Part shown: positions 15,739 through 20,715 of the stretch, piece after piece
Position numbering within the stretch: the first letter of the stretch is position 1
Layout of the letters: every line of letters starts with the position of its first letter
Source of the DNA: Candidatus Binatia bacterium
GTDB lineage: Bacteria > Desulfobacterota > Binatia > UBA9968 > CAXXLF01
Assembly: GCA_963664015.2 (NCBI GenBank)
Contig: CAXXLF010000002.1
Location: 128,001-192,000, forward strand
Direction: 5' to 3'
DNA length: 64,000 nucleotides
Program-made: the position numbers and the translations under genes
The notes under the pieces: model-generated
Told to the model about the DNA's origin: nothing
Seen by the model: the letters and a program-made list of their open reading frames with translations, nothing else
Database searches by the model: none

Positions 15739-18700
15739 ATGGAGATCGCGGTGGTGAACCCACAAGCCGTACTGCAGGTGAGCGTTGAAGCCATTTGTGT
15801 GTGTGTGTGTGTGTGTGTGTGTGTGTGAGTGAGTGGCACAGGTGATACTAGCTGGTGTGTGTGTGTGCAAGGAACGTGACTTGCGTAAGAGTTGTTTCGG
15901 CGTTGTTAAGATGTTGTTTTGACCTAGTGAGATGTTTGAAATGTTGTGCTTAATAGCCTCTGACACCTCTTGGTACATTAATCACAACAAAAGGTGCGTG
16001 TGCATTTGTGTGTGTATACGTGTGTTGTGTGTAGTGCGATGTGTGCATGCATGGGGTGGGAATGGCAGTTGGGTGGGTTACAATGGAAGGCTCAGTTTAC
16101 CGACAACAACAGCTCAAAATGTGTGGTAGGAATTTCACATTCACCTCTAACCACCCTCTCTCTCTCTCTATGTGATTCACTCTATTGAGGGAGAGAGAGG
16201 TTCTGCTGAAGCAATGTAGTCACTGTCCCCAATACAATGGGCCTCTAGTGGACTATCACAATAGTTGTATGGTGGGGACAACCCTGCAATAACAGCCACT
16301 CACCTGACAATAGCTCCATACACACAGGGCAACAGTTCGGGCTGACTCCATGGCCTGTGTGTACCCTGTAGCTACTGTTGTCATAGTCTGGCTGTGGCAA
16401 ATTATCCTCCTTTGCAGATAGGATCTGCCCTATCTCTCTCTCCAATCTGTATAGCTCTGTGGGTGCGACAATGGCCCTTTGTAACCATTGATATGGCGGG
16501 CCCTTATATCTGTTTTTAATCCTTTTACTCATCCTCGTATGTACCGTTTTATTGAGTTCCCACCATACATGTGTACTTTGCCCCCCTCTCTCTCCCTCTC
16601 TGTATGTCTCTCTCTCCTTGCTGTCTCTTGTTCCTTTCTTCTGCCACAGATGTACCAGTGTAAGGACTACCCTTGGCACTCCATGGCCTCTCCGCCACTG
16701 GCTGTCTCTGCCGCAGCTGCGCCCGACAACAAAGAGAAGATCATTGCAACTGCAGACTTCACCGTGACCAGCGCCATCGCCAGAAGGTGTGTGTGTGTTT
16801 TACACTGTTCGTGTGCCGCATATTGACACTCTTGCACTTATTAACCCTCGGCGCGCATGCGCGAGGGTTACTGTAGTCGTCCTGTGTGTGTGTCTGTTTG
16901 TCTGACTGTCCGTCTGTTCCCGCTCTAGCTGCTTCAGCGTCCGTTGAAACCAGCAAACAACGGTACTCACGGGTTTCTCTTAGGCTTTTCTTGGATTAAT
17001 GTGTGGAGTTTCGAAAAAACCTTCCGTTCAAAAGTTATGGCGTGAAAAAGCCAATATGCAAATGAGTTAGAGCTCACCGTCAGCCGCTTTCGCGCAGTTT
17101 TGGGACCGACGAAACACAGCAGCTACGTGAAGGACAACTGGTGGGTCGAATGTTGCTTCAGAGGCTAGCTACTGGTGCAAACGGGCGTGAAACAAGCGAG
17201 ATACAGCCTACTTGGAGCAGCGAGGCACTCGTACGCGCATGCGCAGTACATATATACACAACGCTAGTGTATACTATGTGCGTAGCCACTGTTGAATGTG
17301 AGACCTGCATATGAATTCCGCCGAGGGTTTTGCACTTTAGTGCTATTCATTATACATGCACACGGTATCACAGTGACTGGTGTGTCAGGCCAGCTATGTA
17401 CGATGACCTGCAGTGGTGTGTGTGTGGTATGTAGGGGCTACTATAGAGTGTGTGGGGCTGCACAGGATGTGCAGGGAGAGATAGGGCTTGACTACGCTGG
17501 CATTGTGTTACACCTAGTGACAAAACCTTTGTACGGGAGAAGGATCTTGCTGGGGGTATTGCAAGGCAGCCTGCTCTGTTTAACTCCAGGTGGCCTTAGG
17601 TTTACTACTGCTGTACTGCTTCTGACTGTAGTACTTCTGACTGTAGTGCTTCTGACGGTAGTGCTTCTGTTACCATGGTGTTTCTACAACACATACATAC
17701 ATGCACCCACTCTCTCTCTCTCACACACACAAACTCTCTCTCTCTCTAACCTCAGGAGGCTGTCGAAGCGGAGGAACCCGGCTGCGGCTGAGGGTTGGGG
17801 AGAAGGAGGCAATGGCTCCTCCTCTGATGGTTCCACCTCAAACAGCCCAACTGGGTCTCTAGACTCCCTCACCAGACACCACACTAGGTCACCTATCACC
17901 ACCTCCACACCCTCACACTACACCCACTACACCAACAGGTCCAACACAGACAAGCTTGCATGAAAAAACATGTGTATAGCTATTGTACAATGTGTGCAGA
18001 GTGTGGTGTGTTTGAATATAGAAAATACACACTACCAATGTGTGCACGAGGCCACACACATACATATGCACACACACATACACATACAGTGTTACACTAG
18101 TTGGATATGTGTAGGTCTGTAGCAGGTCTACGTATACCGTGTTGCCTCTCTTTGCCCCACTCAATGGACGACCACCTGCTGTGGTTGTTAATATTCATTG
18201 GTCACTGTATCTCCCTGTGTGCGCGTGTCAGGCGGCCTTTCGACTAGTGTGTGTATGTGCACATTCTGTGTGTGCGAGAGTGTGTGTGTGCGAGTGTGTG
18301 TGTTCCAGGTTGACTTCCGTATGCATTTCTACATAGAGTTCACCCTCCCACACTTTCACTGACTGTGGTTTGTGTGTGTAGCTAGCTACTACCTATAGCC
18401 CCTTGCCCACATGTTTGTGGCTCTCTCTCTCTCTCTCTCGTTGCGTGCATTCCTAGTTCGATTGCCGATAGCAACTATATATATAATAGTCCCACGGCAC
18501 ATGAGTGGGTGTGTAGTGTACACTTGTGCGTATTGCCATATGACCCCTTCTCATGTCTCCCTTCAACTTACTCTGTTGTGTGGAGAGAGAGAGTGTGTGT
18601 AACTAGTGTGCTGAACCACTGTGTATGTGAGTGTTACTCTGTTGTGTGCAAGAGAGAGTGTGTGTAAGTGTGCTGAACCACTGTGTGTGCAAGAGAGAGT

Positions 18701-20715
18701 GTTTCAGAGGAGCTCCCCATAGTGTCCATAGTATATTACCCCAGAGTGCTTGTTGTGCCTATTGGCATTCACTTTTGCAGTTGTGTGGGGTCCAAAGGAC
18801 AATTTAATTGGCTGTGAGTGGTACATAGTGTGTGCTTGTCTGTGTTTGTTTATAGGTGTGTGTGTGTGTGTATATTATGTATGCTGTATCCAGTGTGAAT
18901 GTGTGTGTTGTTGGTTGCTTCTGTGCTTCCTTCCTTATCTGTGCTCTTATTTATCTGAGAAATGTGCATCATGACATTGCTGTTTGCATAGGAACTGCCT
19001 TTGCCTGCTGTATGTGCACATATGTGAATAAGACTTCTGTGTCTGTGTGTTGGCTGATACCTTTGCATGTCATCTCTCCACACACTACACACACTACACA
19101 CACACACTCACACACTCACTCTCTCTCTCTCTCACTCACTCTCTCTCTCTCTCACTCACTCTCTCTCTCTCTACTCACAGTGTGAATCAACGACAGCTGA
19201 CTGACGTCCCTACAACCACCCACCTCCCCACCCACCTATCTCCCCGCACTCACACACACCAAGTGCTCCCCTCACACCCCCAGGCCACTTTGGCCTCCAC
19301 CGTACCCCTAGTGCCAGCTACCTACCACTTTGCCCCCTCTCTACCTGTGGTTACTGCTGCCGAACAGAAAGCCTTCACTCACCCTGGTATACATACACAT
19401 ATAGTTGTGTGTACATATACATACATACATTCATGTTCAATTTATACACAATATGCTCCATGCATCACCTGTCATGTGTGTCTCGATAGAGGTGTTTTCA
19501 GAGTCACTATATGAGATGCCGCTTTTGTTGTGGTCTGTGTGTATAGTAGTCCGGTGTTGTCGTGCGTATGTCGCCTGTGTGAATTCGAGTAGTCACATGA
19601 CCCTCCCTCCCTCCCTCCCTCTCTCCCTCTCCCTCTTCCGTTCTTGTTCAGTCTACACTCAGCTGCAGCAGGAACTAAACTACAGATACCTGCAGGACCA
19701 GTCGGATACCGGTTCCGTGCAGCATGGGAATAGGGGAACGGCAGCTTTCTCTGCACCTCATTCCCAGGCATCTAGCAACTTCTACCAGCAGGTCTGCCTC
19801 TCTCTCTCTCTCTCTCTCTCTCTCTCTTTCACACACACACACACACATACATCTCTTTTGTGTTGCTGTAATGTATAATGCTACTTTTCACAGCAGAGGT
19901 CAGTGGGTATGACTGGAAACTCGGACAGTGGCAGGTCGCATCGGGTCAAGTGGTGCTCTGCTCACGTGACTATTGCCAAACAGATACTTGTACACCAACA
20001 ACAGGCAAAGGTGCGTGCGTGTGCGTGTGTGTGTGTGTGTGTGCGTGTGTGTGTGTTCGCATTTTCAGAACTGCCAAAAATATGTTTTTGGTGATCCTTT
20101 CTACCATCATCCCCCCCCCCCCCCCCCCCCCCCCCCCCCCCCCCCACACACACACACACACAGAATGTGTCAGCTCTTGCTGCCGAGGCGGCTGCTAACA
20201 CCTCCAAACCCATTACAACATCTGCCCCGCCCACCTCTCTAGACCCCGCCCACCAGATTGCCCTCCTACAGATGTATGGAGTTCCCACCACGGCAATCAC
20301 TGGCGGAGGGTACATGGCGATGCAGGGCGTGTCCTACCCCACCCTCCCGCCTGACATCCACCAACTGCACAACCTCTCCTTTGTCCCGAATACAGCACAG
20401 ACTGCCCTGTTCATGGATGCAGCAAACATGATCTCTCTCAAGCCGATGACGACAGGGGTTCCCCCTCATCAGATGTCCGATAACTCGACCAGAGGGGTCC
20501 AGATGGTCAACGGAGTGCAGATTCTGCCCTATGGACCACATGCTGCTGCTGCCCCGCACCATCAAAACCTCCCTATCACAGCCGTCATGCCCGGAGTGGG
20601 CGTGAACAGCATGGTGGACGGGTCGTACATCGGTCACGTTCCCGTTCCAGTCATCGGGAACTGCGTCCTGAACCCATGTCAGCCGGGAGTGATGCCAGCT
20701 CCGTGGGTCCGGTGA
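15739..20715 (+). CDS. AUTS2/FBRSL1/Tay-family-like protein, ~457 aa (5' end uncertain)
   Basis: Seven phase-consistent exons: 15739-15777, 16650-16786, 17756-17938, 19181-19386, 19652-19791, 19894-20010, 20164-20715. H/P/T/Q-rich low complexity plus the motif KWCSAHVTIAKQILVHQQQAK. Confidence 0.7.
16838..17351 (+). mobile_element. Non-autonomous Helentron/DINE-like element in an intron
   Basis: Sub-terminal inverted repeats AACCCTCGGCG (16843-16853) and CGCCGAGGGTT (17319-17329). Also a 5' internal partner CGAGGGTT (16862-16869), a GTCT-like microsatellite, a 3' hairpin GCACT-TT-AGTGC (17332-17343) and T-rich flanks. Confidence 0.7.
17617..17670. repeat. 15-bp tandem minisatellite (CTTCTGACTGTAGTR), ~3.5 copies
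   Basis: Directly visible tandem units in an intron. Confidence 0.75.
20111..20145. repeat. Poly(C) run, 35 nt
   Basis: Homopolymer upstream of a (CA)n-CAG acceptor. Confidence 0.95.

Follow-up and report, generated by a model that had tools for sequence, protein, structure and literature searches.

A transcribed seven-exon gene in the window

The stretch of DNA analyzed here (the window; 64,000 nucleotides, positions 128001 to 192000 of contig C2) carries, at 15739-20715 on its plus strand, a gene of seven exons whose product resembles the AUTS2 family of proteins (AUTS2, FBRSL1, FBRS, and Tay) in short conserved segments. All six introns begin with GT and end with AG, the frame is intact to a TGA stop codon, and the coding sequence of 1374 nucleotides (nt) yields a product of 457 amino acids (aa). 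An earlier note on this DNA, made from the sequence alone, had proposed a phase-consistent gene of this structure, with an AUTS2-like block encoded at 19948-20010 in its sixth exon; both the gene and the frame in which that exon is spliced were borne out by the RNA contigs and relatives described below. The exons are as follows.

Exon 1, 15739-15777 (+): ATG start, 13 codons (MEIAVVNPQAVLQ), with a GT donor after them
Exon 2, 16650-16786 (+): AG acceptor and GT donor; conserved N-terminal motif KEKIIATADFTVTSAIARR from 16731
Exon 3, 17756-17938 (+): Ser/Thr/Gly/His-rich, predicted to be disordered
Exon 4, 19181-19386 (+): Pro/Thr/His-rich, placed by AG acceptor and phase; contains YHFAPSLP
Exon 5, 19652-19791 (+): Region 5-like helix motif LQQELNYRYL at 19663-19692
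Exon 6, 19894-20010 (+): Region 8-like block KWCSAHVTIAKQILVHQQQAK at 19948-20010, the last 21 codons of the exon
Exon 7, 20164-20715 (+): AG acceptor in phase 0; ALLQMYG at 20260-20280; C-terminal tail GSYIGHVPVPVIGNCVLNPCQPGVMPAPWVR at 20620-20712; TGA at 20713-20715

Two related proteins, P0001 (440 aa) and P0002 (526 aa), were retrieved with exon 7 as the sole query. Their source contigs (1569 and 1671 nt, respectively) are nearly all coding, and both proteins align to the spliced model over its whole length, first Met to last Arg, across every exon junction. Identity to the spliced model is 56% for P0001 and 49% for P0002 (58% and 55% in exon 7), and the N terminus encoded by exon 1 is identical in P0001 and near-identical in P0002.

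Part of the locus is present in 18 public runs, 3 of which are recorded as RNA; these three are metatranscriptomes under the label 'sponge metagenome' and represent two samples from one study. These were mapped to the locus together with one DNA-rich run, and RNA contigs bridged four of the six introns.

Intron 1: X13 record 22 joins 15681-15774 to 16647-16784
Intron 2: X11 record 9 joins 16646-16784 to 17754-17929
Intron 4: X11 record 12 joins 19219-19385 to 19651-19766
Intron 5: X12 record 19 and X13 record 26 join exon 5 to exon 6

RNA contigs were also found over 20355-20838 (exon 7), and one (X12 record 18) was unspliced across the border of intron 2 and exon 3. The offsets of 2 to 4 bases at the ends of the RNA pieces are alignment ambiguity at ..CAG/CAG.. 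junctions. None of the listed RNA pieces bridged intron 3 or intron 6, an absence of coverage that is no evidence against those junctions; both are predicted from their GT-AG borders, phase, and collinearity with the transcript-derived P0001 and P0002. Similarly, we infer the exon 3 donor at 17938 from the GT, the phase, and the equal length of this segment in relatives. The gene model is real, and the gene is transcribed.

Two descriptive claims of the earlier note stood in part. The introns measure 872, 969, 1242, 265, 102, and 153 nt, so that only the first three are long; the introns of the neighboring genes, to which they had been compared, can be gauged only roughly, from the spacing of ORF (open reading frame) pieces matched by Pfam. 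The product had been called rich in His, Pro, and Gln. Pro is indeed abundant (43 of 457 residues) and Gln (32) and His (25) are raised, but the latter two are outnumbered by Ala (50), Ser (43), and Thr (43).

A segment of intron 2 (window 16840-17344, ∼500 bp) showed a summed contig depth of ∼0.7 to 1.6 million in the DNA-rich run, versus ∼100 to 280 over most of the locus. Depth over the same segment was high in the RNA runs too, with many internal joints and loose ends. The segment is single copy in this assembly and has no Rfam match; a dispersed repeat present in very many copies in the sponge genome is the probable explanation. An Rfam search over 15000-24500 gave three sub-threshold rows, which lay on microsatellites and were discarded.

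Relatives in sponges

A profile built from P0001 and P0002 was searched against 1.84 billion representative proteins (E ≤ 0.001), and 30 proteins were recovered. Nearly all are fragments of 63 to 252 aa, which are single exons called on genomic contigs, many of them reading on into the next intron. Two relatives from a further search, one limited by length and words, bear organism names: 'uncharacterized protein LOC135339300 isoform X2 [Halichondria panicea]' (E 2.5e-17) and 'ras-interacting protein RIP3-like [Amphimedon queenslandica]' (E 1.4e-8). Both share with the window protein the N-terminal motif, the block, the ..QMYG or ..HVYG helix motif, and the C-terminal tail, and neither bears an AUTS2 name or a precomputed Pfam domain. 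The Halichondria entry is 28% identical to the model over 432 aligned positions. In the Amphimedon entry the likeness is confined to short stretches; this entry lacks the QELN motif, has Ser in place of the Cys of the block, and has no Pfam match. These two entries are true relatives of the window protein. Closer to it is P0152, a clear orthologue (family-profile E 1.3e-82) with 63% identity to the model over 281 aligned positions.

An alignment of the spliced model with five relatives (three full-length; P0152 without its N-terminal part) contains five conserved islands.

Island 1: KE.IIA.TDFT.TS..A[KR]RRL, then a basic run
Island 2: LQQELNYR[YF]L; missing in Amphimedon
Island 3: the block, KW[CS].AHV..AK.I..HQ
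Island 4: ..AL[LF]QMYG
Island 5: the C-terminal tail, ..VP[VM]..G[NS]CV.NP.Q.G....[PS]WV[RK], at the extreme end

The N-terminal motif of exon 2 is kept in all five relatives that cover the region, Halichondria and Amphimedon among them, and the basic stretch that follows it (RRRLSKRR) starts in exon 2 and runs into exon 3, to 17774. The C-terminal tail of exon 7 is kept across 12 aligned relatives. Members of the family are 360 to 530 aa long. Ten genomic fragments extend to the end of the block, and every one of them continues with K-V.., which indicates an intron directly after the last Lys of the block, in phase 0, throughout the family. In human AUTS2, exon 14 encodes residues 645-668, according to the available part of Sellers 2020 (PMC7732068; the statements from that paper below have the same scope).

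The N-terminal motif (KETIIAHTDFT.TSAIAKRRL), with a Ser-rich stretch, also occurs in P0025 (586 aa) and P0030 (316 aa); in P0025 it precedes a complete tyrosine-kinase domain (276 bits). This distribution suggests that the motif is a portable docking module.

The structure of P0001 was predicted with AlphaFold2 using 12 aligned relatives. The mean predicted local distance difference test score (pLDDT) was 47.8, with 327 of the 440 residues below 50, and four helices were predicted.

Residues 8-14 of P0001: the N-terminal segment encoded by exon 1
Residues 185-202: island 2, the equivalent of LQQELNYRYL (block-mean pLDDT ∼69)
Residues 257-283: the Region 8-like block (block-mean pLDDT 85-92)
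Residues 300-309: island 4

From its sequence and this model, the protein appears to be mostly disordered, with a basic stretch resembling a nuclear localization signal (NLS) after the N-terminal motif and extended linkers rich in Ser, Thr, Pro, and His. Strong constraint is seen in three or four short islands, helical or linear.

Two collinear motifs shared with AUTS2 proteins

The AUTS2 family contains eleven collinear conserved regions, of which Region 8 is the most conserved and forms the low-disorder core of AUTS2 (Sellers 2020, PMC7732068). Motifs were compared by eye with the AUTS2 sequences of S1 Table of that study, which are printed to ∼400 residues. The Region 8 block is present in the window protein and includes the rare residues Trp, Cys, and His; 10 of 19 positions are identical in the AUTS2 block of Octopus and 9 of 19 in that of Aplysia. 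The block consensus that the earlier note had given agrees with these mollusc sequences, and comparison with them confirmed its remark that the conserved Trp is replaced here by Lys.

A second motif, which goes beyond the earlier note, lies upstream of the block, in the order seen in AUTS2. In vertebrates Region 5 is ..LLRQELNNRFL.., and in molluscs it is ..FLHQDLNNRLL.. (Sellers 2020, PMC7732068), and the sponge counterpart is ..QLQQELNYRYL... Position classes were defined as the residues seen at ten positions of Region 5 in the printed bilaterian sequences; LQQELNYRYL fits 8 of the 10 classes, and the Halichondria protein and P0021 fit 9. A fit of at least 8 of 10 is expected 6.6e-5 times per protein and was found in none of the 20,000 shuffles or 120 unrelated proteins compared, in a test whose classes were chosen post hoc, after the match had been seen, which counts against our assignment to the AUTS2 family. 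The significance is weaker than computed, yet it remains well beyond chance.

Two further likenesses were noted by eye and given no weight. YHFAPSLP (FAP..LP), just upstream of the Region 5-like motif, is weakly similar to Region 4, and KE.IIA.TDFT.TS, near the N terminus, bears at best a faint similarity to Region 2 (EEDIIDGFA..SF), sharing with it E, I, and I, as well as F and T/S if a gap of two residues is allowed.

Viewed as a whole, the sponge protein and the AUTS2 family (vertebrate AUTS2/FBRSL1/FBRS, their single invertebrate progenitor aAUTS2p, and Drosophila Tay bridge; PF15336) share an architecture that is mostly disordered with short conserved islands. In both, conservation is highest in the Region 8-like helix (KWC..HV..A..I..HQQ), a Region 5-like helix (L.QELN.R[FY]L) lies upstream in the same order, and a basic NLS-like stretch is found near the N terminus. 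The sponge protein is much shorter (360 to 530 aa, versus ∼1000 to 2500 aa in the AUTS2 family), and it has its own ALLQMYG helix and a conserved C-terminal tail ending in PWV[RK]. It lacks the PPxY motif, the HQ repeat, and the RERE-type repeat and has Lys or Arg for the Trp of the block.

Matches to the Pfam Auts2 profile

The Auts2 profile (PF15336) spans 218 positions and has a gathering cutoff of 23 bits. When six exon translations were compared with Pfam (E ≤ 10), the sole match was that of exon 6 to PF15336 (18.1 bits, E 0.0028, profile positions 4-24); exon 7 gave no Pfam match. P0001 (19.9 bits) and P0002 (20.1 bits) matched Auts2 at E values of ∼7e-4 to 8e-4, both below the cutoff, and the orthologue P0152 scored above it (24.6 bits, E 3.1e-5), the only 1 of 17 block-bearing sequences to do so. 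In all, 14 of these 17 sequences matched Auts2, with 14.0 to 24.6 bits (E 3.1e-5 to 0.053) and matches starting at profile positions 1-4. In 11 of the 14, no other Pfam family matched; in the remaining 3, one other family did, and Auts2 outscored or equalled it. Among the 118 other host-side ORFs of the window, none matched Auts2 at E ≤ 0.001. The ranges of the profile that were covered are as follows.

Exon 6: positions 4-24
P0001: positions 4-99
P0002: positions 4-91
P0152: positions 4-53
P0154: positions 1-63

Assignment of the gene

We read the gene as a relative of AUTS2 since two of its helices match the best-conserved islands of that family in order: LQQELNYRYL would correspond to Region 5, and KWCSAHVTIAKQI..HQQ, downstream of it, to Region 8 at the start of PF15336. 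On this comparison of sequences, the gene is probably a compact and highly diverged relative of the AUTS2 progenitor, most likely its orthologue. Support is only partial since the exon falls below the cutoff, the score in the whole assembly is weak, and the islands are few.

Several results weigh against this assignment. Exon 6 itself, at 18.1 bits, lies under the cutoff, as do 15 of the 16 related sequences. The AUTS2/Tay identity proposed in the earlier note is upheld in part, by the sole Pfam family of exon 6 and by an orthologue above the cutoff but not by the gathering threshold applied to the exon; none of the three outcomes that the note had named as refutations was obtained. Three block-bearing sequences (P0003, P0021, and Amphimedon P0155) gave no Auts2 match at all, and the 14 that did are homologous to one another and hence not independent. 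Coverage of the Auts2 domain is incomplete, being firm at positions 4-24 and extending to 4-99 of 218 at the most. When the whole 3.5-Mb assembly was scanned in six frames, the site of exon 6 scored only 7.4 bits (E 9.6), and the Auts2 model awarded 25.8 bits to RERERE.., the translation of a (CT)n microsatellite (C2:123117-123281, minus strand). That best match of the assembly, ∼20 kb upstream of the gene, was rejected as noise; the repeat-rich C-terminal half of the model yields false positives on low-complexity DNA, and the cutoff is unsafe there. At the block position of the bilaterian Trp (..AW..), 16 of the 17 block-bearing sponge sequences have Lys and 1 has Arg. Regular-expression scans of the model and five relatives found no PPxY motif, HQ repeat, or RE-rich (RERE-type) repeat; PPPY is also missing from FBRS, FBRSL1, and Tay (Sellers 2020, PMC7732068). 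Of the eleven regions of the AUTS2 family, two or three short islands are recognizable in the sponge protein. Among the 30 matches from 1.84 billion representatives, there was no long AUTS2 of the bilaterian type. PDB sequence searches with exon 6 and with a two-sequence profile gave chance-level rows (E ≥ 0.075) and no AUTS2-family chain. The ESM Atlas neighbors nearest to P0001 were Period fragments and NUT, at 0.81 to 0.84, under the lead level of the tool, and this likeness was discarded.

A rival reading is a disordered family restricted to sponges, whose likeness to AUTS2 reflects chance or convergence of two short amphipathic helices in His/Gln-rich sequence. Every Pfam score but one under the cutoff, a site that is nonsignificant in the whole-assembly scan, a profile prone to low-complexity matches, and the recovery of 0 bilaterian proteins from 1.84 billion representatives all speak for it. 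Most of the protein, including its N terminus, its ALLQMYG helix, and its C-terminal tail, also has no visible counterpart in the Sellers 2020 sequences as printed (to ∼400 residues). We nevertheless consider chance or convergence unlikely. The two motifs are separate and nonrepetitive, they occur in the right order, and each, within its own family, ranks with the best-conserved islands (for AUTS2, Sellers 2020, PMC7732068); the matched block contains rare residues; no shuffled sequence reproduced the Region 5 fit; and Auts2 was never outscored by another Pfam family in the sequences that matched it. Homology might instead be limited to a portable module of two helices (Regions 5 and 8), in which case the gene would not be an AUTS2 orthologue and need not act with Polycomb repressive complex 1 (PRC1). 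The islands are indeed separable, the N-terminal motif also fronting the tyrosine kinase P0025 and occurring in P0030, and FBRSL1 binds PCGF3 via residues 1-163 (in the available part of bioRxiv 10.64898/2026.10.20.760506), so that shared Regions 5 and 8 alone imply no PCGF binding. Such a module is quite improbable given the collinear motifs with a weakly Region 4-like FAP..LP upstream; the finding of one relative per annotated sponge genome (n = 2) also argues against it, as weak evidence from a search limited by length and words. Finally, the contig is chimeric and comes from a mixed (holobiont) assembly, which raises the prospect that the gene belongs to a bilaterian or another eukaryote living in the sponge sample. 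This is very improbable: the named relatives of the gene come from two sponge reference genomes, the best named relative of a neighboring gene (among the matches listed) comes from Geodia, and the locus is present in DNA runs of four coded organisms.

A possible role with variant PRC1

The PRC1.3/5 class of Polycomb complexes is defined by AUTS2, FBRSL1, and Tay, which are linked to neurodevelopmental syndromes in humans. Both AUTS2 and FBRSL1 bind PCGF3 at its RAWUL domain, and in FBRSL1 residues 1-163 form the PCGF3 docking segment and central regions recruit effectors (bioRxiv 10.64898/2026.10.20.760506, as far as the available text goes). Region 2 (EEDIIDGFA..SF) falls inside this N-terminal fragment. 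In the fly, PRC1.3/5 is defined by Tay (available part of PMC9451159), and sponges possess PCGF genes whose subfamily is left unresolved in the available part of bioRxiv 10.1101/2020.03.18.997064. No RAWUL domain (PF16207) was found in the ∼152 kb of host DNA of this assembly.

By analogy with these systems, the likeliest role of the sponge protein would be that of a nuclear adaptor, bound to a ubiquitin-ligase core of the PCGF type (variant PRC1), with its conserved islands bringing in effectors. Nuclear location and an adaptor role in association with PRC1 are possible, but we put them at somewhat less than even; the modest figure reflects the fact that the shared islands differ from those shown to bind PCGF3. 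More tentatively still, the protein may be a minimal AUTS2 of the ancestral type, with an N-terminal docking motif and the Region 5 and Region 8 helices on disordered linkers, that served as an adaptor of PCGF-type variant PRC1 in the first animals. If so, the AUTS2-Polycomb axis would be older than Bilateria and nervous systems alike, with the long proteins of bilaterians as later elaborations; the C-terminal tail (..GNCVLNPCQPGVM..PWVR) would then be an effector module that was either lost or specific to sponges.

Age of the AUTS2 family

For many 'neural' gene families, an origin before neurons is already established. The one evolutionary study devoted to AUTS2 traces its progenitor no further than the ancestor of Nephrozoa (Sellers 2020, PMC7732068), and the words sponge, Porifera, and Cnidaria are absent from the text of that study. 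AUTS2 likewise has 0 occurrences in the available part of Gahan 2020, on PRC1 evolution. Literature searches returned no work linking AUTS2 to Amphimedon, and co-mentions of AUTS2 with cnidarian or with sponge/Porifera were irrelevant by title. The novelty search covered this literature, and an unpublished database assignment in other nonbilaterians is possible.

The AUTS2/Tay family probably arose before nervous systems. The earlier note had drawn the same conclusion for the core of the family, on condition that the host was a sponge; it follows solely if the homology to AUTS2 holds. In that case, the origin of the family would shift to the base of animals, and its ancient core would be the Region 5 and Region 8 helices. 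The sponge relative is a small, tractable protein for testing what these helices bind. Since the homology rests on short motifs, we regard this as a moderate advance and not a surprise in kind.

Host DNA and the chimeric contig

In the first three 50-kb bins of contig C2, long ORFs cover a fraction of 0.23 to 0.32, and each bin contains 74 to 92 dinucleotide microsatellites. In the later bins of C2 and in all of contig C1, the cover is 0.64 to 0.95 and microsatellites number 0, except for one in one C1 bin. The window has 74 microsatellites, the last one ending at 23279, and from 24112 onward bacterial ORFs are dense, the first of them a GHMP-kinase gene at 24112-24978 on the minus strand. The contig is a chimera in which ∼152 kb of eukaryotic (sponge) DNA was mis-joined during assembly to the chromosome of a bacterial symbiont. 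The join lies between ∼24000 and 24110, so that the host side comprises window positions 1-24100 (C2 1 to ∼152100).

The host is a demosponge and not a bilaterian, as the PAQR match to Geodia, the relatives in Halichondria and Amphimedon, and the RNA runs labelled as sponge metagenomes together indicate; the sponge host that the earlier note had set as a condition is borne out for this DNA. For one of the two PAQR genes near the AUTS2-like gene, the sole organism-named row among the 120 matches listed was from Geodia barretti (64% identity, 96% coverage). The other neighbors are also eukaryotic.

Septin, ∼300-1400 (+): exon fragments
NADPH-cytochrome P450 reductase (POR), 3640-6608 (+): exon fragments
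Two tandem intronless adiponectin-receptor/PAQR (HlyIII) genes, 7077-8438 and 8578-9744 (-): 453 and 388 aa
ARPC3, 10154-11715 (+): exon fragments
U1-type zinc-finger protein, 21035-21799 (-): exon fragments
PDZ-domain protein, 21832-22866 (+): exon fragments

No Pfam match was found in 11900-15700. The host side is rich in microsatellites and bears introns, and this DNA is thus filed within a 'prokaryote' genome rated 97% complete and 2% contaminated. The membrane cores of the tandem PAQR pair are very similar, and their N termini are different.

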